This document shows, in pieces, positions 43,845 through 56,302 of a DNA stretch of 64,000 nt (position 1 is the stretch's first letter; every line of letters starts with the position of its first letter). The DNA is taken from positions 11,959 through 75,958 of the forward strand of contig JBJHBW010000002.1 in the NCBI GenBank assembly GCA_050485685.1. Reading direction: 5' to 3'. A model generated the notes under the pieces. It was not told the DNA's origin, did not search any database, and saw only the letters and a program-made list of their open reading frames with translations. The DNA is from Gammaproteobacteria bacterium. GTDB lineage: Bacteria; Pseudomonadota; Gammaproteobacteria; Steroidobacterales; Rariloculaceae. A program made the translations under genes and the position numbers.

Positions 43845-45035
43845 TCACTTCTTTCCGGCCAGTTCCGCCGCGACGCGACGGTAGGCCTCGCGAAACGAGA
43901 TGCCTTCATTCAATACCAGTTCGTTGGCGCGCTCGGCTGCACGCAGCGAATCGGGCAGATGAATGTTCTCGGGCCTGAACTTCACGCCGGCCAGCGCGTG
44001 GGCGGCAATGGCCAGGCAGTCGGCGGCGAGATCCAGCGTGCGGAACAGCGGCGCCTTGATGCGCTGCAGATCGCGGTGATAGCCCGACGTGAGCTTGCCG
44101 GTAATCGCCAGCAATTCCACCAGCGCGCCGTTCGCAGTCGCGTGCGCGCCGCGCAACAGTTCGAACACATCCGGATTGCGTTTCTGCGGCATGATCGAGC
44201 TACCCGTGGTCATCTCATCGGGCAGCGCGACGAATGCGAACTCTTCCGTGTAGAACAGCAGCAGATCGGCCGCGAGACGTCCGAGATCGCCAAGCAGCAG
44301 TGCGACCTCGAACACAATGGTCGCCTCGGCCTTGCCACGGCTGAGCTGCACCGCGGTGACCGGTTCGTGATTGCGCGCAAAGCCGAGCGCCTCGCGTGTT
44401 GCGTTGCGATCCAGCGGCAGATTGGCCACGCCGTAACCGGCCGCCGAACCCAGCGGGTTGGCATCCGCACGGCGACGCGCGGCCAGCAACCCTTCGCGAT
44501 CATCGGCAATCTCGGTCGCGAATCCCCCGGCCCACAACGCGACGGAACTCGGCATCGCCGGCTGCATGTGTGTGTAGCCGGGCAGCGCAATCTCACCCTG
44601 CTCGATCGCCAGGCGGTTCAGCGACGCAACGACTTCGTCGGCGCCGGCCGCGAGCTGTTCGACCGCATCTTTCATGTAAAGGCGCAGCGCCACCAGCACC
44701 TGATCGTTGCGCGAGCGCCCTAGATGCACGCGCGCGCCGGCCTCGCCTATGCGTGCGGTGAGGTGGCGCTCCAGCGCGCTGTGTACGTCCTCGTCCTCAA
44801 GCGTGATGGCCCATTCGCCGGCCACATGCGATGCGGCCAGCGCATCCAGACCGTCGCAGATCGCATCGGCATCGGCGCCGGACAGCAGGCCCTGTGCGGC
44901 GAGCATGCGTGCATGGGCTTTCGACGCCTGCACGTCATACGGCACCAGGCGCGCATCCAGCAGGTGATCCTCACCGGCCGTGAAGCGCAGGATGCGCTGA
45001 TCCAGCGGCTGCCCTTTCTCCCAGAGTCTGGCCAT
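43845..45035 (-). CDS. argH: Argininosuccinate lyase (short Xanthomonas/Bacteroides-type)
   Basis: 'LWEKGQPLDQRILRFTAGEDHLLD', 'GRSRNDQV' and 'GSSIMPQKRNPD'. 396 aa. Confidence 0.85.
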   Translation of the reverse strand: MARLWEKGQPLDQRILRFTAGEDHLLDARLVPYDVQASKAHARMLAAQGLLSGADADAICDGLDALAASHVAGEWAITLEDEDVHSALERHLTARIGEAGARVHLGRSRNDQVLVALRLYMKDAVEQLAAGADEVVASLNRLAIEQGEIALPGYTHMQPAMPSSVALWAGGFATEIADDREGLLAARRRADANPLGSAAGYGVANLPLDRNATREALGFARNHEPVTAVQLSRGKAEATIVFEVALLLGDLGRLAADLLLFYTEEFAFVALPDEMTTGSSIMPQKRNPDVFELLRGAHATANGALVELLAITGKLTSGYHRDLQRIKAPLFRTLDLAADCLAIAAHALAGVKFRPENIHLPDSLRAAERANELVLNEGISFREAYRRVAAELAGKK

Positions 45036-45062: not shown

Positions 45063-46007
45063 TCAGTCCTGGGAGGACTGCTCTTCCGGCGTCAGCTGCT
45101 TGATGTCGTTGACGACCAGCGTGCCGCCGCCCTCGTTCGTGAAGATCTCCAGCAGCAGGCTGTCGGACAGCGCATAGGAAATCACGTGCACACGCGGCAC
45201 ACCGCCGGCCAGTGCCTTCTCGATCGCCGCAACCTTGGGCAGCATGCCGTCCTGCAGGCGACCTTCATCGCGCAGACGCTGCAGCCCGGCGCGATCTATA
45301 TATGAGATCAGCGAGCGCGGATCTTCCAGCGACTCCAGAATGCCCGGCGCGCCGGTGGCCAGCATCAGTTTTTCCGCGCCCAGCGAACAGGCGATTGCGG
45401 CCGCCACCGTATCGGCATTGATGTTCAGCAGCGTGCCGGATTCATCTGCCGACAGCGGGCTGACCACCGGCACCAGGCCGTTGTCCAGCTGCGTCAGCAG
45501 CACGGCCGGATCCACCGACTGGATATCGCCGACGAATCCGTAGTCCACCGAGCCGCGCTTGCCTTCGCGTGTCACGGGCGGGCGCTTGCGCGCGCGGATC
45601 AGGCCCGCATCCACACCGCTGATGCCGACGGCCGGCACATCCAGATCGCGGCACGCGGCGAGGATGCGTGTATTGATGTCACCGTTCAGCACCATCGTCG
45701 CAACTTCCAGCGCGCGCTCGTCGGTGACGCGACGACCATCGACGAACTCGGTCTGAAGGCCCAGCTTCTCGGCCAGCGCCGTCGACTGCGGGCCACCGCC
45801 GTGCACGAGCACGACGCGTATGCCCACCTGATGCAGGATGCCGATCTGCTCGACGAACTGCCGCGTGCGCTCGGGCGTCGCGAACGCCTCGCCGCCGGCC
45901 TTCAGCACGAAGACCTTGCGCTTGTACATGCGGATGTAAGGCACCGCGTGCCGGAGCGCGGTCACGACGATCGCGCGTTCACTACCTGTCAGTCGGGTCA
46001 TTGCCAT
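45063..46007 (-). CDS. argB: N-acyl-glutamate kinase (amino-acid kinase domain only)
   Basis: 'FVLKAGGEAF', 'VLVHGGGPQ' and 'LNINADTVAAAIA'. 314 aa with no acetyltransferase domain appended. Confidence 0.9.
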   Translation of the reverse strand: MAMTRLTGSERAIVVTALRHAVPYIRMYKRKVFVLKAGGEAFATPERTRQFVEQIGILHQVGIRVVLVHGGGPQSTALAEKLGLQTEFVDGRRVTDERALEVATMVLNGDINTRILAACRDLDVPAVGISGVDAGLIRARKRPPVTREGKRGSVDYGFVGDIQSVDPAVLLTQLDNGLVPVVSPLSADESGTLLNINADTVAAAIACSLGAEKLMLATGAPGILESLEDPRSLISYIDRAGLQRLRDEGRLQDGMLPKVAAIEKALAGGVPRVHVISYALSDSLLLEIFTNEGGGTLVVNDIKQLTPEEQSSQD

Positions 46008-47008
46008 CAGCCTTTCAACATTCTGTAGAGCACGGCCATCTGCACCAGCATGCGGTTGCGTGCTTCCTGTATCACGACACTGCGCGGGCCGTCGAGAATC
46101 CGGTCCGCAACCACCACGCCACGACGCACCGGCAGGCAGTGCATGAAGCGTGCATCGGGGCGCGCGTTCTCAAACCAGGGTTCGTCCACGCACCAGGGCA
46201 CCAGCGGTTCGCGCAGCGCCTGGTCGGCGAGGCGGTCACCATAGTGACGCGTCGACGACCATGACTTCGCGTAGATCACATGCGCGCCTTCCATCGCCTC
46301 GCGCCTATCGGTGGTCTCGGTGATCGTCCCGCCACTGACCGCGGCGGCGGCGCGCGCCTTGTCCATGATCGGATCGGGCAGTTCGAAGCCTTCCGGACGC
46401 AACACCGTGACATCCATGCCACGCATGGCCGCCATCTGCAGCGTGGAAGCCGGCACGGCCAGCGGCAGCGCCTTCGGGTGATAGGCCCAGGACAGGACGA
46501 AACGCCCGCCGTTGGCAGGAATGCCGAGTTCATCCAGCGTCTTCCAGTCGGCCAGGCTCTGGCACGGATGATGAATTGCCGATTCCATGTTGATGAACGG
46601 CTTGTCGACCAGTGCCGCGAGCTGGTTGAACTCGTTGTCGGCGATGTCATCGGCCAGGCTGCGGCGACCTGCGAACGCGCGTATGCCCACTGCATCGCCG
46701 TAGGAGGCGATCACCGGCACCGCTTCGCTGATGTGTTCGGCGGCCGCACCATCCATGACGATGCCATGGCGGGTTTCCAGTCCGTGTATGGACATGTCCG
46801 GAGAAATCACGAACGCACCGCCGCCGAGACGGATCATCGCCGCCTGAAACGACGACATGGTGCGCAGCGAGGGACTGAGGAAAAGCAGCGACAGCACCTT
46901 GCCTGCCAGCGCCTGCGGCTCCGGATGCTCATCCAGCCGTGCCGCCAGTTCGATCAGATCGGCAATCTGGTCGGCAGTGAAATCGGCAAGGTCGTTAAAG
47001 CGATTCAT
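46007..47008 (-). CDS. argF': N-acyl-L-ornithine carbamoyltransferase (AOTCase/SOTCase family, ArgF')
   Basis: 'SPSLRTMSSF', 'VMDGAAAEHI', 'INMESAIHHPCQ', 'WAYHPKALPLAV', 'YAKSW' and 'HCLPVRR'. This pattern fits the acyl-ornithine branch rather than classical OTCase (no SMG loop). Start ATG 47008. Confidence 0.8.
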   Translation of the reverse strand: MNRFNDLADFTADQIADLIELAARLDEHPEPQALAGKVLSLLFLSPSLRTMSSFQAAMIRLGGGAFVISPDMSIHGLETRHGIVMDGAAAEHISEAVPVIASYGDAVGIRAFAGRRSLADDIADNEFNQLAALVDKPFINMESAIHHPCQSLADWKTLDELGIPANGGRFVLSWAYHPKALPLAVPASTLQMAAMRGMDVTVLRPEGFELPDPIMDKARAAAAVSGGTITETTDRREAMEGAHVIYAKSWSSTRHYGDRLADQALREPLVPWCVDEPWFENARPDARFMHCLPVRRGVVVADRILDGPRSVVIQEARNRMLVQMAVLYRMLKG

Positions 47009-48206
47009 CGGCGAGGTCCTCCAGTGCCGTGGCGAGCAGGTCAATGTGTTCGGGTTGCAGAATCAGCGGCGGCAGCAGACGCACGATGTGCGGATCGGCG
47101 CTGGTGCCGGTCAGTATGTCACGCGCGAGCAGCGCATCGCGCACCGCGGCAGCACGCGGCCCGGTACGCAGGCCCAGCAGCAGGCCTTCGCCCTGAATCG
47201 CCGTGACGGGGCCTTTCACGCACCGCTCGCGGATCAGTGCCGACATCGCTCGTGCGTTGGCGACAAGATCATCTTCGATCATGGCTTCCAGCGTGGCCTT
47301 GATCGCAGCACTCGCGAGCGGGCCGCCGCCGAAAGTCGTGCCCAGCTGACCGGGACCGAGCTCGGCCGCGATGGCCTGGGTCATGATCGTCGCGCCGCAC
47401 GGAAAGCCGGCCGCCAACGCCTTGGCCACGGTGAGAATATCGGGCGTGACTTCATACAGCGTGGCACCGAAGTTCGCGCCCAGCCGGCCCACGCCGGTCT
47501 GCACTTCATCGAGAATCAGCAGCGCGCCGGCACGGTCACAGGCCTCGCGCGCGGCCTGCAGGAAATCACGGCCCACCTCATACGCGCCGGCCTGACCCTG
47601 CACCGGCTCGGCAATCACCGCCGCGGTGCGCTGATCCACGGCCGCCTGCAGTGCCGCCACATCGCCGCGCGGCACGAACTGCACTTCCATGGGCGTGGTC
47701 GGAAAACCATACCAGCTCTTGCGTGCCCCCCAGGTCACCGCCGCGGCAGCTGCCGTGCGGCCGTGGAACGAATTCTCCAGCGCGACAACCTTGGGTCGCC
47801 CGGTGAGCGCCAGCGCCAGCTTCAATGCGTTCTCGTTGGCTTCGGCGCCGCTGTTCACAAAGAACACACGCGACAGACCTTCGGGCGCGAACGCGGCCAC
47901 GGCCTCGGCTGCCTCGTCACGAATCTTCATCGGCACGACATTGCTCTGGAAATGCAGCTGCTGTGCCTGCGCGGCGATCGCCGCGGTCAGTTTCGGGTGC
48001 GCATAGCCCAGCGAGGCGACCGCATGGCCGCCATAGAAATCAAGAACGCGACGACCTGCCTCATCGAACAGGAACACGCCTTCGCCACGCAGCGGTTCGA
48101 ACGGCAGCATCGGATACACCTCGGTGAGATTCGCGGGGGGACGCTTGCCCGCAGCGGTGCTCGCGGCGCCGGGTGCAGTCGGGCTGTTGTCGGTTGATGT
48201 CGTCAT
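46995..48206 (-). CDS. argD: Acyl-ornithine aminotransferase
   Basis: Class III aminotransferase: 'DFYGGHAVASLGYAHP', 'ILDEVQTGVGRLG' and PLP-Lys 'ILTVAKALAAGFP'. Confidence 0.85.
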   Translation of the reverse strand: MTTSTDNSPTAPGAASTAAGKRPPANLTEVYPMLPFEPLRGEGVFLFDEAGRRVLDFYGGHAVASLGYAHPKLTAAIAAQAQQLHFQSNVVPMKIRDEAAEAVAAFAPEGLSRVFFVNSGAEANENALKLALALTGRPKVVALENSFHGRTAAAAAVTWGARKSWYGFPTTPMEVQFVPRGDVAALQAAVDQRTAAVIAEPVQGQAGAYEVGRDFLQAAREACDRAGALLILDEVQTGVGRLGANFGATLYEVTPDILTVAKALAAGFPCGATIMTQAIAAELGPGQLGTTFGGGPLASAAIKATLEAMIEDDLVANARAMSALIRERCVKGPVTAIQGEGLLLGLRTGPRAAAVRDALLARDILTGTSADPHIVRLLPPLILQPEHIDLLATALEDLADESL

Positions 48207-48221: not shown

Positions 48222-49292
48222 CTAGATCCAGGCCGCGGCCGGCTGCAACAGGCCCGCGTTCTCAGGCAGGTCCAGCAGGCGGTTCGCCCACTGCACGGAT
48301 CCGCCGGCGGCGCCCTTGAGCAGGTTGTCGATCACGGACAGCATCACGATGCTGTCAGCGTCCATCTTGGCATTGAGCGCGGCGAAGTTGCTGGCCGCGA
48401 CGTCTTTCACGCGCGGCGGTGCATCCAGCACCTGCACGAACGGGGAAGCGCGGTAGTACTCACGCGTCGCATCCAGCACATCGCTGAGCTTCACACCGGC
48501 ACGCGGACGCGCGAACACGGTCGCGTGAATGCCGCGCGCGAAGGAACCCGAGTGCGGTACGAAATGCAGATTGATGTCGCGGCCGGTGGCCTCGCCGGCC
48601 AGCGCCGTGACTTCCGGCGCATGCCGGTGCACCAGTGCCTGATACGCGAACAGGTTGCTCTGACGCACCGGGTGGTGGGTGGTCTCGCGCGGCGTGCGGC
48701 CGGCGCCGGTGCTGCCAGTCACAGCGCTGACGAAGAACTCCGGCTCTGCAAGATCGGCGGCGACCAGCGGCACGATGGCCAGCAGCATCGCGGTGGCAAA
48801 GCAGCCCGGATGGGCCGCGTGCGGCCGGACCGTTTCGGGTGCTGCCTGCTCCGGCACCGCGCACGCGAACTCGGCATTCAGCGCCGGTTCCGGATGCGCA
48901 TGACCATACACTTTCGCGTACAGATCCAGATCACGGAAGCGGTAGTCGGCGGAGGCATCGACGACCGTGAGTTGCACACCGGCCTGGGAGGCCGCGGCCA
49001 GCAGCGTGGCCACCAGCGAGGCCGATGCGCCATGCGGCGCCGCGGACAGCACCAGCCAGTGTGGGGCCTGACCGATCTTTTCCAGTGTGGTTTCCAGCGT
49101 CACGAAGGTCGTGTTGCCATACACCGGCGCCAGGTGCGCGAACACGGACGCGATGGTCTCACCGCCCTGACTGGTGGACACCGCCGCGCCCAGTGTCAGG
49201 TTCGGATGTGCCGCCACCAGACGCAGCATCTCGCCGGCCACATAGCCGGAGCCGCCGAGTACGATGACCGGATAGGTGGTGTTGTCGCTCAT
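48222..49292 (-). CDS. argC: N-acyl-gamma-glutamyl-phosphate reductase
   Basis: 'VLGGSGYVAGEMLRLV' and active-site Cys 'HPGCFATA'. 356 aa. Confidence 0.9.
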   Translation of the reverse strand: MSDNTTYPVIVLGGSGYVAGEMLRLVAAHPNLTLGAAVSTSQGGETIASVFAHLAPVYGNTTFVTLETTLEKIGQAPHWLVLSAAPHGASASLVATLLAAASQAGVQLTVVDASADYRFRDLDLYAKVYGHAHPEPALNAEFACAVPEQAAPETVRPHAAHPGCFATAMLLAIVPLVAADLAEPEFFVSAVTGSTGAGRTPRETTHHPVRQSNLFAYQALVHRHAPEVTALAGEATGRDINLHFVPHSGSFARGIHATVFARPRAGVKLSDVLDATREYYRASPFVQVLDAPPRVKDVAASNFAALNAKMDADSIVMLSVIDNLLKGAAGGSVQWANRLLDLPENAGLLQPAAAWI

Positions 49293-50371
49293 GCCGACTC
49301 CGTCGCCGGTGCGATCCGATCACCCAGGCCTATCGCTTTCTGCAGCAGGTCCGCGAGATCGGCACCCGACGTGATCGCGTTCAGTGCCGGCACGTTGGAG
49401 CGATCACGGATGATCTCCACGCCGACCTTGTTGTCGGTGGCAGGTCCCGTTACGACGGTGGGTTCCACGCCGAACTCCTCGCGCAGCAGTCGCACGCCGC
49501 CCCAGGCCGCAACCGGATCGTTCGCACACAGCACCAGCGCCGAGAGCTGATCGCGTATCACTGCATCGCGCAGGATCGCTTCCACGCCATACGCGCCCAG
49601 CAGTCCGTCGCCGAGCTCGAACACGATCACATCGGCGCGCTGCTGGCCGAGCAGCGACATCAGCTTGCGTGTCAGTGCCGGCGCATTGCGGGACGTGGTT
49701 GCGACCACGCCAAGATCAGTGAAAATCGCCGTCGCGCGCGCGCCGGCATCTTCCATTGCGAGAATGTCGCGGCGCAGCGCAACGCCGGTGGACTTGAACG
49801 CATCGACGGTGAGGCCGTTGTGACGGAAGCGGCTGATGATCGCACTGGCCGCCGCGGTCTTGCCCGAATCCATACACGTACCGGCGATGGCGATCACCGG
49901 CGTGCCGTTCAGGTTGACCGGCTCATCGTCGCGCAGCGGCTCGCGGCCGATCCTGGCCGGAACGCCAACACGTTCGCCCAGATACGGAAACTGCAGCACC
50001 ACGCCGAGCACGCGACAGTCGTACGGCGCCCCATGTTCGGGGTTGATGGAATCGCAGATGCCCATCACGCCGCCCAGGTTCAGCAGCTGAATGACGTCGC
50101 CGGGTTTGAGCGCCGTGGGCAGATGACCGGAATAGCCGAACAGCGCCTTGCGATGACCCAGCGCGCCGACGATCACGTCGCCGCGGCGCACCTTGGCCAT
50201 GCGGCCACTGGTCAGTTCCAGCGTGTTGTACGAGGACTTGTTGGTCAGCACCTCGACCGCGACCAGCACGCCTTCCTCGCAGGGAATGTCATCACTGACC
50301 CTGATCTCCCTGCCCAGATCCGCATCGATGGCCACGGACGCAATCTTGTCGACAATGACGGGACGCATCAC
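49289..50371 (-). CDS. Uncharacterised protein X: beta-rich N-domain plus BioD/CobQ-like P-loop domain, embedded in the arg operon
   Basis: 360-aa ORF. Stop/start overlaps with argG (GTGATG at 50366-50371) and argC (ATGA at 49289-49292). Motifs 'VIAIAGTCMDSGKTAAAS' and 'DVIVFELGDGLLG'. No similarity to ArgA/ArgJ/ArgE that I can recognise. Confidence 0.8.
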   Translation of the reverse strand: MMRPVIVDKIASVAIDADLGREIRVSDDIPCEEGVLVAVEVLTNKSSYNTLELTSGRMAKVRRGDVIVGALGHRKALFGYSGHLPTALKPGDVIQLLNLGGVMGICDSINPEHGAPYDCRVLGVVLQFPYLGERVGVPARIGREPLRDDEPVNLNGTPVIAIAGTCMDSGKTAAASAIISRFRHNGLTVDAFKSTGVALRRDILAMEDAGARATAIFTDLGVVATTSRNAPALTRKLMSLLGQQRADVIVFELGDGLLGAYGVEAILRDAVIRDQLSALVLCANDPVAAWGGVRLLREEFGVEPTVVTGPATDNKVGVEIIRDRSNVPALNAITSGADLADLLQKAIGLGDRIAPATESA

Positions 50372-51630
50372 TTTTTTCCTCCGGCACGGGTATGCAGCAT
50401 GCCCGGCAAAGAAAGAATCCTCGAGAAACCGACCGCATCAGCCGGGGTCCACTCACCGGCAGCCTCGCCATACTTGCCACGACTGGCCGCCATCAGCGAG
50501 TGCGGCGACGTGACACCGACCACAAACGCGTGCCCGGGCCGCAGTGACAGGCGCACTTCGCCGGTCACCCGGGCCTGCGAGGACTCCAGCAGCGCTTCTA
50601 TGTCGCGGCACACGGGATCGAGCACCTTGCCTTCATGCACGAAGTCGCCGTAAGCCAGCGAGACCTGTTCCTTGATGCGCATCTGCAGCTGCGTCAGCGT
50701 GAGCTTTTCCAGTTCACGATGCGCGGTCAGCAGCAGTTCGGCGGACGGGGCCTCGAACGCAACGCGACCCTTGGTGCCGAGAATCGTGTCGCCAAGATGA
50801 ATGCCGCGGCCGATTGCGTACTCGGCGCCGATCTGCTCCAGCCGCTCGATCAGCGAGACCGGATCCAGCGCCTCACCGTCCACACTGACCGGCACGCCGC
50901 GCTGGAAACCTATGCTCAGCTCACGCGGTGCGCGATTGGCTTCGAAGGCGCCGCTGGAAAGCACCCATGCGGACTCGGGAATCGTGCCGGCCGAATCCAG
51001 CGTCTCGGTGCCGCCTATGGTCACGCCCCACAGACCGCGATTGATCGAATAGGCCGAACCACGCGACGGCACCGGCATGCTGCGCTGCTCCAGGAACGCG
51101 ACCTGATCGGCACGCGGCCAGGCATGATCGCGCACCGGTGCGAGCACGGTGAGGTCCGGCGCAAGCGCCTTGAGGATGACCTCGAAACGGATCTGGTCGT
51201 TGCCCGCTGCCGTGCAGCCATGGGCGACAACAGAAGCGCCCATCTGCCGCGCCGTCGTGGCCAGATGCCTGGCCTGCACGCCGCGCTCGGCGCCGACGCA
51301 CAGCGGATACAGCGCTCCGCGCTTCACGTTGCCGATGATCAGGTACTTCAGCACCTGATCGAAGAACTCACCGCGCGCTTCGACCAGCACGTGATCGGCA
51401 GCGCCGAGCTTGCGCGCATGGGCATCAAGGTGCGCCTCGGCGGCCGCATCCAGACCACCGGTGTTCACGGTCACGGTCACGACCGGGCGGTTGTAGGTTT
51501 CGGCCAGCCACGGCACGCAGAATGAGGTATCCAGCCCGCCGGAGTAGGCAAGGACAATGGGACTGTTCGCGTCCCCGGGCAGGGGCTGTGTGGCGGCGGC
51601 GTCGGATTGGCGCCCTGTAGTCGTGGTCAT
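50368..51630 (-). CDS. argG: Argininosuccinate synthase
   Basis: 'VLAYSGGLDTS', 'HGCTAAGNDQIRFE' and 'SINRGLWG'. Start at ATG 51630 (ATGA overlap with the argR stop). Confidence 0.9.
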   Translation of the reverse strand: MTTTTGRQSDAAATQPLPGDANSPIVLAYSGGLDTSFCVPWLAETYNRPVVTVTVNTGGLDAAAEAHLDAHARKLGAADHVLVEARGEFFDQVLKYLIIGNVKRGALYPLCVGAERGVQARHLATTARQMGASVVAHGCTAAGNDQIRFEVILKALAPDLTVLAPVRDHAWPRADQVAFLEQRSMPVPSRGSAYSINRGLWGVTIGGTETLDSAGTIPESAWVLSSGAFEANRAPRELSIGFQRGVPVSVDGEALDPVSLIERLEQIGAEYAIGRGIHLGDTILGTKGRVAFEAPSAELLLTAHRELEKLTLTQLQMRIKEQVSLAYGDFVHEGKVLDPVCRDIEALLESSQARVTGEVRLSLRPGHAFVVGVTSPHSLMAASRGKYGEAAGEWTPADAVGFSRILSLPGMLHTRAGGKK

Positions 51631-52091
51631 GGTACTTCGATTCCCAGGCTTTCCCTTAAACGCGCTCGCAGACGACGCTGCTGGGCAGCGCCTGCGGTCG
51701 CAACAAAAATCGTGTCGTCGCCGGACAGCGTGCCGACGATCTCCGGCCATTGCGTGCGGTCCAGCGTCACGGCCACGCGCTGTGCGGCGCCGATCGCGGT
51801 CGTCACCACCAGCAGGTGCGGACCCGCGGTGCGCAGCTCGCGCACGAGCTCGGCCACATTGGCCAGTGCCCCGTCCTCGCCGGTCGCGCTCGCCTCCGGC
51901 AGGCTGTAGCCTTCACCCAGCTTGGCGGCGCCCAGATGCCTGAGGTCACGGCTGACGCTGGACTGCGTGGCCGGATACCCTTGCGCACGCAGCAGCTCCA
52001 CCAGCTCGGACTGACGGCGAATGGTTCTGGAGCGGATCAGCTGCGCGAGAACGCGCCGCCGCTCCTGCTGCTGTGCGGTGGCAACGGGCAT
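51627..52091 (-). CDS. argR: Arginine repressor (ArgR/AhrC family)
   Basis: wHTH 'IRRQSELVELLRAQGYPATQSSVSRDLRHLG' and C-terminal oligomerisation domain 'GTLSGDDTIFV'. First gene of the operon. Confidence 0.85.
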   Translation of the reverse strand: MPVATAQQQERRRVLAQLIRSRTIRRQSELVELLRAQGYPATQSSVSRDLRHLGAAKLGEGYSLPEASATGEDGALANVAELVRELRTAGPHLLVVTTAIGAAQRVAVTLDRTQWPEIVGTLSGDDTIFVATAGAAQQRRLRARLRESLGIEVP

Positions 52092-52316: not shown

Positions 52317-53015
52317 ATGACGGGGACGAATACTGCCGGGCCGTTGTTACAGACGGTGGAGATCAACACCGGCGACTCGCCGGAGCTTTGCGTGATCTGG
52401 CTGCACGGCCTGGGCGCGGACGGCCACGATTTCGAACCGCTGGTCCCCGAACTGCGGCTGCCCTTTCCGGCCCGCTTCGTGTTTCCGCATGCGCCGGTAC
52501 GCGCGGTCACGATCAATGGCGGCATGCGCATGCGCGCGTGGTTCGACATCACGGCGCTGGAAGTAGGCGCCGATGAGGATGAGGCCGGGCTACGCGAAAG
52601 CGCCGCGGCCGTGGAGGCGCTGATCGCACGTGAGATCGAGGCCGGCGTACCGCCCGAGCGCATCGTGCTGGCCGGCTTCTCGCAGGGTGGCGCGGTCGCG
52701 CTGCACGTCGCGCTGCGCTACCCGCACAGGCTCGCCGGCGTACTGGCGCTGTCCACATTCCTGATGGCGGCGGACACGCTGGAACGGGAGCGTTCGGAAG
52801 CGAATGCCGCGATTCCGATCTTTCTCGCACACGGCAGTTACGATCCGATCGTCGCGCCGGCCTATGGCGAGTGGTCCAGACAATTGCTCGACGAAGCAGG
52901 GTACCGCCCGGACTGGCGGCTATATCCCATGCAGCATTCGGTGTGTGCGCAGGAAGTGGTGGACATAAGTCAGTGGCTGAAGAAAATCGCCACCGCGCAG
53001 GGCATCTGCAGATGA
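52317..53015 (+). CDS. Carboxylesterase/phospholipase-family alpha/beta hydrolase
   Basis: 'CVIWLHGLGADGHDF', nucleophile elbow 'GFSQGGA', 'FLAHGSYDPIV' and 'MQHSV'. Confidence 0.8.
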   Translation: MTGTNTAGPLLQTVEINTGDSPELCVIWLHGLGADGHDFEPLVPELRLPFPARFVFPHAPVRAVTINGGMRMRAWFDITALEVGADEDEAGLRESAAAVEALIAREIEAGVPPERIVLAGFSQGGAVALHVALRYPHRLAGVLALSTFLMAADTLERERSEANAAIPIFLAHGSYDPIVAPAYGEWSRQLLDEAGYRPDWRLYPMQHSVCAQEVVDISQWLKKIATAQGICR

Positions 53016-53186: not shown

Positions 53187-53828
53187 ATGGGGGATGTCAC
53201 TGTTCTGCTTGGCAATGCCGCGAGCGATCCGGCCGCGCAGTCGGCGCTGTTCGAGGCGATCTATCCCGAGCTGACCGCCATCGCCACACGCCACCTCGCG
53301 CGCGAGTCCCACGAGATCGAACTGGAACCCCATGCACTGGTGCATGAGGCGTACCTGCGCATGCTGGAACTGGAGCGCATCACCTGGCAGGACCGGTCGC
53401 ATTTTCTGGCGGCAGCGGCCGGTACGATGCGCCGCGTGCTGATCGACTCGGCGCGACGGCGCGGCTCGCACAAGCGTGATGGCGGCCTGCGTATCACGCT
53501 CACCGGTCTGTCCCTGCGCGGCAACACACAAACCACGGACATGCAGTCGCTGCATGAGGCACTGGGAAGACTCGCCGAGGTGCACCCCGAACATGCAAGG
53601 CTGGTCGAGCTGCGCTACTTCGGTGGCCTGTCGCTGGAGGAACTGGCCGACGTGCTGGACAAGTCGCCGGCAACCGTGAAGCGCAGCTGGAGCGTGGCCC
53701 GTGCGTGGTTGTATCGCGCGCTGCTGGAACCGGAATCGCAAGACAGCACGACGCCGGACCAGGGGTCATGCGATGGGAATGCCCGTCACACCCGAACGGG
53801 TGAACCTGACAGACAGGCCGGACCGTGA
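53187..53828 (+). CDS. ECF-type sigma-70 factor (TIGR02999-like, kinase-associated group)
   Basis: 'ALVHEAYLRMLE' (region 2) and 'ARLVELRYFGGLSLEELADVLDKSPATVKRSWSVARAWL' (region 4). RBS AGGAAG before the ATG. Confidence 0.85.
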   Translation: MGDVTVLLGNAASDPAAQSALFEAIYPELTAIATRHLARESHEIELEPHALVHEAYLRMLELERITWQDRSHFLAAAAGTMRRVLIDSARRRGSHKRDGGLRITLTGLSLRGNTQTTDMQSLHEALGRLAEVHPEHARLVELRYFGGLSLEELADVLDKSPATVKRSWSVARAWLYRALLEPESQDSTTPDQGSCDGNARHTRTGEPDRQAGP

Positions 53829-56302
53829 ACACCGCGGACACCGAGCGGCGCGCGCTGGAACTGTGCGAAGCCGCGCTGACGCTTGGCTCCGAAGCACGCA
53901 CGCATTTCCTGGCCGCACAGTGCGGCGATGATGCTGCGCTGCTGGATTGCGTACAAGCACTGCTGCGGGCGGTAGACGACAGCGAGGGGTTTCTCGAACC
54001 TGAACCGCCGCATGGATTCGACGCGTTCGGGGCCGGCGCAACGCAAGGCTACGAACCCTGGGTCGACATCCCCGGCACGAACCCGGCCCGGGCCCGTGCC
54101 CCGCGCATGGGCACACGCATCGGGCGCTATACCGTCATCGAACCGCTGGGCGACGGCGGCATGGGTTCCGTGTATCTGGCCGAGCACCGTGATGGCGACT
54201 ACCTGCAGCGCGTCGCGATCAAGGTGCTGCGCGCCGCGCTCAATACCCGCGAGGGACTGGAACGCTTCGAAGCCGAAAGACGCGTGCTGGCGCGACTCAA
54301 TCATCCCTACATCGCGGGCCTCATCGATTCGGGCACCACCGACGACGGCCTGCCGTATCTGGTCATGGAGTATGTGCAGGGCCTGCCCATAGATCGCTTC
54401 TGTGACGAGCAGGGTCTGGACCTGCGCGCGCGCATACGGCTGCTGGTCAAGGTCATGCTCGCAGTGCAGGCCGCGCATCAGAACCTCGTCATTCATCGCG
54501 ACCTCAAGCCCTCCAACGTGCTGATCACGCCCGACGGCCTGCCCAAGCTGCTGGACTTCGGCATCGCCAAGCTCCTGGTCGCGGCCGACGAGGCGGGCGC
54601 GGCCGGGGAACTGACGCAGGTGTGGGGCCAGGCATTGACGCCGAACTACGCCAGCCCCGAACAGATACTGGAAGGGCGCGCGACCACCGTCAGCGATGTG
54701 TATTCACTGGGCGTGCTCGCGTATCAGCTGCTGTGCGGCGAACTGCCCTATCGCATCGATGGCCACGCGCAGCGTGCACTGGTGAGCCGATTCGAGACAC
54801 TCACCGTGCCGCGGCCCAGCACGCGCCTGGCGCGCATGAACGATGCAGCGCTGGCCGACGCGCTGGCACGACGGCGCGGCCTGAACGTGCGCCGGCACGC
54901 GGCGGCACTGCGCGGCGATCTCGACAACATCCTGCTGATGGCGCTGCGCCTGGAACCGGAACGACGCTACGGCTCCGTCGCGCAGTTCGCCGAGGACCTG
55001 CAACGCTTTCTCGACGGCCATCCGGTAGCCGCGCGACACGATACGCTGGCCTACCGTTGCGGCAAGTTCCTGCGCCGCCACTGGCTGCCGGCTGCCGCGA
55101 CCGGCGTGCTGCTGCTGTCGCTGGTCGGCGGCGTGCTCGGCTTCGCGTGGCAGGCCGAACAGGCGCGTGCCGAGCGCGATCGCACGCTGCTCGTCAATGA
55201 CTTCCTGCAGAGCATCCTGATCGAGGCCGACCCGTACGAAGCCGGCGCCGATGCGACGATACGCGACGTGCTCGCGCGCGCCGACGGCATGATCGCCGAG
55301 CGCTTCACCGACATGCCGGATCTTGAAGCCTCGCTGCGCCGCACCGTGGGCTACACACAGCTGGGCCTGCTGGAACTGGATGCCGCCGCTGCGAACCTCG
55401 GTCGCGCACACGAGCTGAACGTGCGCCTGTATGGCGAGGCCGATCAACGCAGCCTGCAGACATGGACGGATCTGGCGTGGACAGAGTTTCGCCGCGGCGA
55501 TCTGGAGGCAGCCAAGTCCGGCTATCGCCAGGCGATTGCGATGATGACAGACACCCTGGCGGAGCCGTTCCGCATGAAACTGCTGAACGACTTCGCGGTG
55601 GTGCTGATGGACACCGGCGATCCGGAAGACCTCGAGGAAGCGGTGACGCTGCTGGAGCAGGTAAGCACGCTGCAGGCCAATGTGGAAACCGACCCGAGCG
55701 AAGATGCGACGATGTTGAACAACCTCGCCGCCGCGCTGCACGATCTCGGCGAACTGGATGAGGCCGAGACACGTTACCGGGAGAGCATCGCGATCGGGCA
55801 GAGCCAGCCCAACGCGCACATGGATCCGAACCTTGCGATCCATATGAACAATCTCGCCGTGCTGCTGCTGCAGCTAGAACGGCCCGACGAGGCGCTGACC
55901 TGGCTGCGCGAGTCGCTGGACATCCGCCTCACCGCACTGGGCCCGGAACACGGGTTCACCGGACTTGCGCATCTTCAGGTGGGCCGCGTGCTGTTCGACG
56001 GCGGCGACATCGAGGCGGCCAGACCGCACATAGTCAGCGCGCTCGCAATCTCCACCGCGGTGCTGCCGGAGGGCAACGCCCAGCTGCTGCTGGCCAGGGC
56101 ACTGGCGGCGCGTCTGCAGTCCACTGACGGTGATCCCCACGGCGGAGCAGCCGCACTGGCCGCGATCGCCAATGACATGGATGAACTGGGCATGGTCGAC
56201 CTCAAGGGCCTGGTCGATCGCTGGCTTGCCGACGCAGAAAGCCAGCTGGACTCTCAACCGGCTGCTGAGCCGTTTTCCGCCGTGATTGCGCCTAACCAGT
56301 AA
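53825..56302 (+). CDS. Transmembrane Ser/Thr protein kinase with C-terminal TPR domain
   Basis: 'LGDGGMGSVYLAEH...VAIKVL', 'HRDLKPSNVLI', 'DFGIAK' and 'YASPEQ'. TM 'LPAAATGVLLLSLVGGVLGFAW', then TPR-like repeats. GTGA overlap with the sigma gene stop. Confidence 0.9.
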   Translation: MNTADTERRALELCEAALTLGSEARTHFLAAQCGDDAALLDCVQALLRAVDDSEGFLEPEPPHGFDAFGAGATQGYEPWVDIPGTNPARARAPRMGTRIGRYTVIEPLGDGGMGSVYLAEHRDGDYLQRVAIKVLRAALNTREGLERFEAERRVLARLNHPYIAGLIDSGTTDDGLPYLVMEYVQGLPIDRFCDEQGLDLRARIRLLVKVMLAVQAAHQNLVIHRDLKPSNVLITPDGLPKLLDFGIAKLLVAADEAGAAGELTQVWGQALTPNYASPEQILEGRATTVSDVYSLGVLAYQLLCGELPYRIDGHAQRALVSRFETLTVPRPSTRLARMNDAALADALARRRGLNVRRHAAALRGDLDNILLMALRLEPERRYGSVAQFAEDLQRFLDGHPVAARHDTLAYRCGKFLRRHWLPAAATGVLLLSLVGGVLGFAWQAEQARAERDRTLLVNDFLQSILIEADPYEAGADATIRDVLARADGMIAERFTDMPDLEASLRRTVGYTQLGLLELDAAAANLGRAHELNVRLYGEADQRSLQTWTDLAWTEFRRGDLEAAKSGYRQAIAMMTDTLAEPFRMKLLNDFAVVLMDTGDPEDLEEAVTLLEQVSTLQANVETDPSEDATMLNNLAAALHDLGELDEAETRYRESIAIGQSQPNAHMDPNLAIHMNNLAVLLLQLERPDEALTWLRESLDIRLTALGPEHGFTGLAHLQVGRVLFDGGDIEAARPHIVSALAISTAVLPEGNAQLLLARALAARLQSTDGDPHGGAAALAAIANDMDELGMVDLKGLVDRWLADAESQLDSQPAAEPFSAVIAPNQ

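Follow-up and report, generated by a model that had tools for sequence, protein, structure and literature searches.

Gene X in a compact arginine operon

The window analysed here is a stretch of 64,000 nucleotides from an uncultured gammaproteobacterium of the Rariloculaceae (contig JBJHBW010000002.1 of assembly GCA_050485685.1, positions 11,959 to 75,958). Its minus strand carries a compact cluster of arginine biosynthesis genes, running from 52091 to 43845 in the order argR-argG-X-argC-argD-argF'-argB-argH, in which X (49289..50371, minus) is an open reading frame (ORF) of 360 amino acids. A preliminary description of the window, made from the sequence alone, could not match X to any known arginine enzyme and proposed it as a candidate non-orthologous N-acylglutamate-forming enzyme. 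We have followed up this proposal by comparative genomics, profile searches and structure prediction.

Both borders of X described at that stage were read on the minus strand. At the 5′ end the text is GGAGGAAAAAAGTGATG, with the TGA stop codon of argG lying inside GTGATG and a strong Shine-Dalgarno sequence (GGAGGA) located 5–8 nt before the start of X (argG-X junction, 50366..50390, minus). Translation could begin either at the GTG, with a 4-nt overlap with argG, or at the next ATG, with a 1-nt overlap and a product of 359 amino acids. Because homologues of X open with M(K/R)xxxxDK, the second codon, the ATG at 50368, is favoured and may be the true start. At the other end, the stop codon of X overlaps the start of argC in the sequence ATGA (49289..49292, minus). 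X is a translationally coupled member of the arg operon.

The other genes of the cluster, all on the minus strand, cover most of the arginine pathway. Pfam and NCBIfam models identify argR, the arginine repressor gene that opens the cluster (51627..52091), argG for argininosuccinate synthase (50368..51750 as listed), argC (48222..49292) and argD for N-acylornithine aminotransferase (46995..48206). They are accompanied by argF' (46007..47044), which encodes a knotted acylornithine transcarbamylase with the signature A102/P194/V311, by argB for N-acylglutamate kinase (45063..46007), which overlaps argF' in the sequence TGATG, and by argH for argininosuccinate lyase (43845..45035). The argG ORF as listed begins with 40 surplus codons, overlapping the end of argR (51627-51750, minus); the true ArgG start is probably M41, near 51630, whose ATG overlaps the TGA of argR as ATGA. 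The ArgH protein is a short form of 396 amino acids; its match to the TIGR00838 model spans positions 11-386 out of 455, and ASL_C2 was not detected in it. ArgH has 401 amino acids in Steroidobacter denitrificans and 467, with ASL_C2, in a more distant X cluster (L094).

Two functions that an N-acylated pathway calls for were not recognised when the genes of the operon were scanned with Pfam and NCBIfam: a synthase for the first step and a deacylase. The 314-amino-acid ArgB consists of an amino-acid-kinase domain only, and the Pfam scan detected no GNAT domain or extension in it. Nor was any GNAT protein, ArgJ or M20 deacylase found in the operon or among 30 other scanned genes of the window. 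The missing first step and kinase-only ArgB of the preliminary description are therefore both borne out.

A pathway most likely of the succinyl type

The acyl group handled by such a pathway can be read from the transcarbamylase. N-acetylornithine transcarbamylase (AOTCase) is marked by Glu92, Asn185 and Lys302, in place of which the succinyl enzyme carries A/S/P/V/Q, P and V/I/E (PMC4581275). ArgF' of the window carries A102, P194 and V311 at the places of E92, N185 and K302, so that its earlier designation as an Ala-type enzyme, with alanine at the Glu92 position of the Xanthomonas campestris AOTCase, could be refined to succinyl type (A/P/V). Its best PDB alignment is with the E92A mutant of the X. 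campestris N-acetylornithine transcarbamylase (3L02). The same pattern (A/S/I, P and a residue other than Lys) was found in all 61 of the 61 ArgF' proteins encoded beside X. NCBIfam scores the window protein above cut-off as N-acetylornithine carbamoyltransferase; since A102/P194/V311 is the succinyl signature, this name is probably wrong on the acyl group, and its use for ArgF' of this clade likely represents a systematic misannotation. Judged from these residues, the acyl group of the pathway is most likely succinyl. In the succinyl pathway of Bacteroidetes, the first step is assigned to the GNAT-type protein BT3761 and desuccinylation to an M20 enzyme (PMC7311316); neither type was detected in the operon or in the 30 other scanned genes of the window.

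Conserved association of X with arginine genes in bacteria

Homologues of X are numerous (more than 6,400 in one search, every one labelled 'hypothetical') and, grouped at 50% identity, form a family of 1,444 clusters, in which identity falls to about 28% among the full-length members. A survey of gene neighbourhoods, which the preliminary description had called for, revealed that the arg linkage is kept in 80 species-level genomes and in distant relatives. These 80 genomes comprise Steroidobacterales, Rariloculaceae and other gammaproteobacterial metagenome-assembled genomes (MAGs), together with the cultured Steroidobacter flavus, and X lies within argR-argG-X-argC-argD-argF'-argB-argH or close variants. 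Nearly all the bacterial homologues that we examined sit in arg operons, even when they are only distantly related to X: argG-X-argF'-argH for P0209 (32% identity, L081), argG-X-argC for P0142 (40%, L082), an ornithine transcarbamylase gene followed by X for P0174 (39%, L090), argG-X-argC-argD-argF' for P0126 (48%, L091), and argR-X-argC-argD-argF'-argB with divergent argG and argH for P0272 (L094).

The conserved neighbours of the 80 loci include no deacylase or GNAT protein. They are housekeeping genes: polA, an Abhydrolase_2 esterase gene, tamAB, a Nudix gene and an ABC transporter. The esterase-like gene (phospholipase/carboxylesterase) is present in the window at 52317-53015 (plus), divergent from argR, and occupies the same place in 24 of the 80 related loci. 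Just past it lies an ECF sigma factor gene that overlaps the next gene, encoding an 825-amino-acid Ser/Thr-kinase-like protein with a long C-terminal repeat region (53187-56302, plus). Other recurrent neighbours of X clusters are a Peptidase_C92 amidase gene beside argG (L094 1827-2435, minus), a 4HBT thioesterase gene after argH in S. denitrificans (L095 16980-17465, plus) and an arginase-family gene (L093 3552-4466, plus). These three could be relevant to the missing desuccinylase or to the handling of acyl-CoA.

The orthologue in Steroidobacter denitrificans and a published prediction

The closest comparison for the window is with S. denitrificans. Its protein A0A127FCT3 (P0368, UniRef100_A0A127FCT3) shares 64% identity with the window X over 354 of 360 amino acids (E 6e-176), and its operon in CP011971.1 has the same order, argR-argG-X-argC-argD-argF'-argB-argH, with the same succinyl-type ArgF' signature. 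We consider it an orthologue: nothing essential differs between the two loci, the window coming from an uncultured relative, and in both the function of the family is a predicted one.

This prediction is already public. In 'GapMind 2026' (bioRxiv 10.1101/2024.10.14.618325, latest version July 2026), Price et al. reported that S. denitrificans has no ArgA and yet can grow on minimal medium, that its hypothetical protein ACG33_RS14135 (A0A127FCT3) is virtually always encoded in arg operons, that homologues of A0A127FCT3 and of ArgA never co-occur, and that ArgF' proteins encoded alongside belong to the succinyl type. They gave the first-step role of A0A127FCT3 as a prediction. Our finding is a rediscovery, and credit for the functional prediction belongs to their preprint. 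The role proposed for X in the preliminary description is the one best supported by comparative genomics, and it was reached independently by Price et al. for this orthologue.

Mini-operons and a fusion tie X to the early steps

In at least seven Steroidobacteraceae loci only X-argC-argB are kept together and the other arg genes lie elsewhere. One such trio directly follows tamB (L053), and another locus has the order argR-X-argC-argB (L069). In addition, a 673-amino-acid ORF (L083 9860-11881; also L084-L086) consists of a complete X fused with an amino-acid-kinase (AAK) domain that resembles ArgB. The X-AAK fusion is identical in sequence in four metagenomes. Its locus is away from other arg genes and adjoins a divergent arginase-family gene. 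In its kinase domain, the K-x-GG of ArgB is replaced by KIAD, so that the domain may be non-catalytic. The fusion mirrors the layout of classical N-acetylglutamate synthase (NAGS) and of the bifunctional synthase/kinase (NAGS/K), in which an AAK domain is joined to a catalytic domain. Both kinds of association, the mini-operons of X with argC and argB and the fusion with an ArgB-like domain, place X with the first steps of the pathway and not with late deacylation.

This bears directly on the idea that X is instead the missing N-succinylcitrulline (or N-succinylornithine) desuccinylase, the counterpart of ArgE, an alternative that the preliminary description had also named. The place of X in the operon is roughly the one presumably held by argE in Xanthomonas-type clusters, and in L094 X is grouped with genes acting on acylated intermediates. 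Besides being absent from the operon, a recognisable ArgE is absent from the S. denitrificans genome; candidate argE genes do, however, adjoin some homologues of A0A127FCT3 (bioRxiv 10.1101/2024.10.14.618325). Added to the early-step associations above, the P-loop NTPase fold of X with its invariant nucleotide site, which is no hydrolase scaffold, and the occurrence of archaeal relatives without arg genes (see below) make a desuccinylase very improbable.

Several other apparent fusions call for caution, two of them on error-prone long-read contigs. The apparent X-ArgC fusion P0167 was rejected as artefactual, argR-argG and argF'-argB being joined as well on its contig. A second one, P0284 (721 amino acids), stands on a 4x long-read contig and may be either genuine or an artefact. 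The argR-argG fusion in L093 is an assembly error. More generally, the long-read metagenome contigs L087, L092 and L093 show argR-argG, argF'-argB and X-argC gene fusions that are probably frameshift artefacts, and database 'fusions' of this kind are not to be taken as Rosetta-stone evidence.

A P-loop domain joined to an all-beta domain

X scores above no Pfam or NCBIfam cut-off, its single match being a sub-threshold one to the MobB P-loop, in agreement with the earlier failure to match it to an arginine enzyme; a single-sequence search of the PDB with X returned no match. The Pfam scan detected no GNAT match in X or in 50 relatives. These relatives, at 28–66% identity, were chosen to be diverse and aligned to assess conservation (alignment A1). 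An AlphaFold model built from this alignment (mean predicted local distance difference test (pLDDT) score 96) displays two domains.

The N-terminal domain (about residues 1-150; 49922..50371, minus) is all-beta in the AlphaFold2 models, with a pLDDT of 96 within the whole protein and 94 when modelled alone. In the model of the whole protein, the all-beta part comprises residues 1-127. Submitted to Foldseek on its own, it found no structural relative in the PDB (best E 2.2, template modelling (TM) score at most 0.33), in keeping with the preliminary description of a beta-rich segment of about 150 residues without known motif. G34, P85 and G101 are invariant in the alignment, and S12, E52, R74 (49/50) and G104 nearly so.

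The C-terminal domain (about residues 151-360; 49292..49921, minus) has been assigned by Foldseek and by sub-threshold Pfam matches to the SIMIBI class of P-loop NTPases. It carries the Walker A motif GxxxxGK[ST] and the acidic Walker B residue in a SIMIBI fold. Foldseek gave a probability of 1.0 for its similarity to signal recognition particle (SRP)/FtsY GTPases, BioD, DUF1611 (2OBN) and HypB, with E-values of about 1e-6 to 1e-5. BioD 3of5 had the best target-normalised TM score among the Foldseek matches (0.61), and the DUF1611 structure 2obn matched with E 1e-5 over 238 columns. Among the 50 members, sub-threshold Pfam matches were to MobB (34), CbiA (30), DUF1611_C (29) and AAA_26 (11). 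PDB profile searches with the whole of X or with the C-domain yielded BioD, MobB and SRP P-loop matches only; those to BioD (E about 2e-4) and MobB were restricted to the first 50 residues or so of the domain. The BioD/CobQ/MobB/DUF1611-like fold class proposed from the sequence is thus recovered by three kinds of search.

The motifs reported earlier in the C-terminus were both found, at residues 164-172 and 247-259. The Walker A motif or P-loop, GTCMDSGKT (residues 164-172; 49856..49882, minus), has invariant G170 and K171, position 172 being Thr or Ser. Residues 247-259 (DVIVFELGDGLLG) include the Walker-B-like ELGDG (residues 252-256; 49604..49618, minus), with invariant E252 and G254, which we take to be comparable to the EGAGG of BioD. 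Lys193, located at the end of strand beta-2 in FK-x-TG (49793..49795, minus), is invariant in 50/50 members and, in a profile alignment to the Mycobacterium tuberculosis BioD, aligns with the Lys of the BioD motif KP-x-x-TG. At the end of a further beta-strand lies CAND (residues 282-285; 49517..49528, minus), whose Asp285 is invariant and which, from its position, would occupy the place of the NKxD base-recognition motif of GTPases. In all, the C-domain residues conserved in 50/50 members are G170, K171, T/S172, K193, D/E202, E252, G254, D285 (in CAxD) and G309. In the model, the domain is a SIMIBI-class P-loop fold with an invariant set of nucleotide-site residues.

Such a fold is also found in proteins that assist others, and X could be a non-catalytic, NTP-dependent accessory factor, such as a SIMIBI GTPase-type assembly factor, chaperone or regulator of an arginine enzyme or metabolon, or could make a different N-protecting group or side product. 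The top Foldseek matches, to SRP/FtsY and HypB-type GTPases, and the G4-like CAxD motif with its invariant Asp are what this explanation would lead one to see. However, the family follows biosynthetic genes through many rearrangements, a required step would otherwise lack an explanation in an organism able to grow on minimal medium, the large conserved N-terminus with its invariant or nearly invariant Arg resembles a substrate domain, and Pfam and NCBIfam recognised no metalloenzyme client in the operon. We regard an accessory role as unlikely.

Comparison of X with BioD and DgcN

Of the proteins that share the fold of the C-domain, BioD offers a chemical analogy. BioD catalyses the formation of a C-N bond after phosphorylation of a carboxyl or carbamate oxygen, and so do its relatives, CobB/CobQ and the amidoligase domain of CTP synthase. 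X shares with it the GT-x4-GKT P-loop, the Lys at the end of beta-2 and a Walker-B Glu in E-x-G-x-G, and the residues that make up the BioD catalytic set appear to be present throughout the X family (invariant K171, T172, K193 and E252). In contrast to BioD, a single domain of about 225 amino acids, X has an extra domain of 150 amino acids and different substrates, and its use of ATP is predicted. The BioD family models AAA_26 and TIGR00347 gave no whole-domain match in X; the sub-threshold AAA_26 matches (11/50) and the PDB profile match cover about 50 residues in the latter case.

DgcN, a member of the DUF1611 family, offers a precedent for the N-acylation of glutamate, since it is a D-glutamate N-acetyltransferase according to Yu et al. 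2023, as cited in bioRxiv 10.1101/2024.10.14.618325. DUF1611 proteins (PF07755 + PF17396; 7XRJ, 2OBN) resemble X in having a SIMIBI-like P-loop C-domain with GTxxxxGK[TS] and an acidic Walker B followed by Gly-rich residues. DgcN differs from X in its Rossmann-like DUF1611_N, as opposed to an all-beta N-domain, and acts on the other glutamate enantiomer with another acyl group. X did not reach the Pfam gathering score for DUF1611_C, and the sub-threshold matches of its relatives span about 40 residues at the P-loop; DUF1611_N had no Pfam match in X or in the 50 relatives; and no DgcN or DUF1611 entry appeared in the PDB profile searches with the whole of X or its C-domain. The UniRef name of the orthologue, 'DUF1611 domain-containing protein', was rejected as a statement of its family on the Pfam thresholds and the N-domain. 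Of the DUF1611/DgcN link drawn in the preliminary description, the likeness in fold class stands and the specific link does not: the likeness is generic to the fold class, no stronger than that to BioD or SRP GTPases.

These comparisons bear on the acyl donor. The option that we slightly favour, while holding it as tentative, is an ATP- or GTP-dependent ligation of free succinate via succinyl-phosphate, by analogy with BioD, CobB and CobQ; it is favoured because the full set of residues for phosphoryl transfer, including the BioD-type beta-2 Lys, is invariant. Alternatively, and in our view less probably, X might be a succinyl-CoA:L-glutamate N-succinyltransferase in which the P-loop holds the phosphates of coenzyme A (CoA) and no nucleotide is hydrolysed; N-succinylglutamate would be formed in this case too. 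To our knowledge, all characterised ArgA-type enzymes use an acyl-CoA, and succinyl-CoA is plentiful in aerobes. Further points in favour of a transferase are the 2obn match, the DUF1611_C matches in 29/50 members, and a weak match of the orthologue model to DgcN (PDB 7XRJ; Foldseek E 1.4e-7, with an r.m.s.d. of 5.6 Å; bioRxiv 10.1101/2024.10.14.618325). The DUF1611 matches, however, are below threshold and limited to the P-loop region, the profile searches favour BioD and MobB, the N-domain is unlike DUF1611_N, and the invariant Mg-ligand Thr/Ser, Walker-B Glu and beta-2 Lys seem more than the anchoring of CoA phosphates needs.

Archaeal relatives of X occur with RimK-type ligases

The X family is not confined to arginine operons. 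Relatives with 38–77% identity to P0193 were found in DPANN archaea (L088 8001-13260 and L096-L116, e.g. L099 8001-12213), in one Aenigmatarchaeota MAG and in contigs from hypersaline environments or soda lakes. In 18 of 22 DPANN loci, X is convergent to two genes resembling RimK-family ATP-grasp alpha-L-glutamate ligases and to a gene for a membrane protein of about 520 amino acids (MscS-like/C39-like). In some cases, X is directly coupled to a third RimK-like gene. The loci of this module contained no arg genes, and the two lineages have different genes on either side of it.

RimK-type ligases add to a glutamate with an already amide-linked amino group, using its free alpha-carboxylate as the acceptor. 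Because they need an N-blocked glutamate, we infer that an enzyme making N-acyl-glutamate would be a logical partner for them. The ArgX/LysX enzymes of the LysW route, which protect the glutamate amino group in an ATP-dependent manner, are themselves RimK-family ATP-grasp proteins. Their fold is unrelated to that of X; the operon has no gene for a LysW-like carrier, and ArgF' acts on a small N-acyl-ornithine.

Discussion

We propose, with a probability of about 0.6, that X forms N-succinyl-L-glutamate for ArgB and would thereby catalyse the first committed step in an arginine pathway of the succinyl type. Glutamate would be converted to N-succinylglutamate by X and passed to ArgB, ArgC, ArgD and ArgF', acting as a succinylornithine transcarbamylase; desuccinylation, ArgG and ArgH would follow. 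X would replace the GNAT-type ArgA by an unrelated two-domain protein. Its C-terminal P-loop domain would bind the nucleotide-bearing co-substrate, and the cleft facing the beta domain, with the invariant or nearly invariant Arg74, Glu52 and Ser12, would bind glutamate and/or succinate. The predicted place of X in the pathway is that of ArgA (AAK + GNAT), of bifunctional NAGS/K and of BT3761/Cabys_1732, proposed as the N-succinylglutamate synthase of Bacteroidetes, whose pathway is likewise succinylated. These GNAT-type synthases have a fold unrelated to that of X and possibly a different acyl donor.

A number of points weigh against this assignment. Two functions, the synthase and an N-succinylcitrulline desuccinylase, are absent from the operon, and gene context cannot fully separate them. 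The succinyl assignment is based on the signature residues of ArgF', and we have chosen the acyl donor and the nucleotide by inference. The structural link to DgcN/DUF1611 is no better than that to SRP GTPases, BioD and HypB in Foldseek and is lacking at the profile level. A search with the X-AAK fusion protein found one sequence cluster only. Finally, the absence of ArgA, ArgJ and GNAT applies to the operon and 30 other genes of the window.

A more specific and more speculative version of the proposal is that X is a CoA-independent, ATP/GTP-dependent succinate:L-glutamate ligase, made up of a P-loop domain like that of BioD and a beta domain not seen before. It would then represent a new class of enzymes at the start of arginine biosynthesis, and the family as a whole would make N-blocked glutamate, a product that in DPANN archaea would prime RimK-type ligases instead of entering arginine synthesis. 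We regard this combination as possible but doubtful. The donor chemistry (succinyl-CoA versus succinate and ATP) is the scientifically new part of the question. Beyond the prediction already made by Price et al., the interest of the family resides in this chemistry, in the structurally unmatched N-domain and in the archaeal branch linked to RimK.

If the proposed role is correct, arginine synthesis in a large group of Gammaproteobacteria from soil and sediment, represented by more than 6,000 public sequences, begins with an enzyme that is not related to any known N-acylglutamate synthase. This would close a gap in pathway prediction for organisms that otherwise look like arginine auxotrophs, and the succinyl-type route to arginine would no longer be limited to Bacteroidetes. 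A protein family with a novel domain would also gain a first function.

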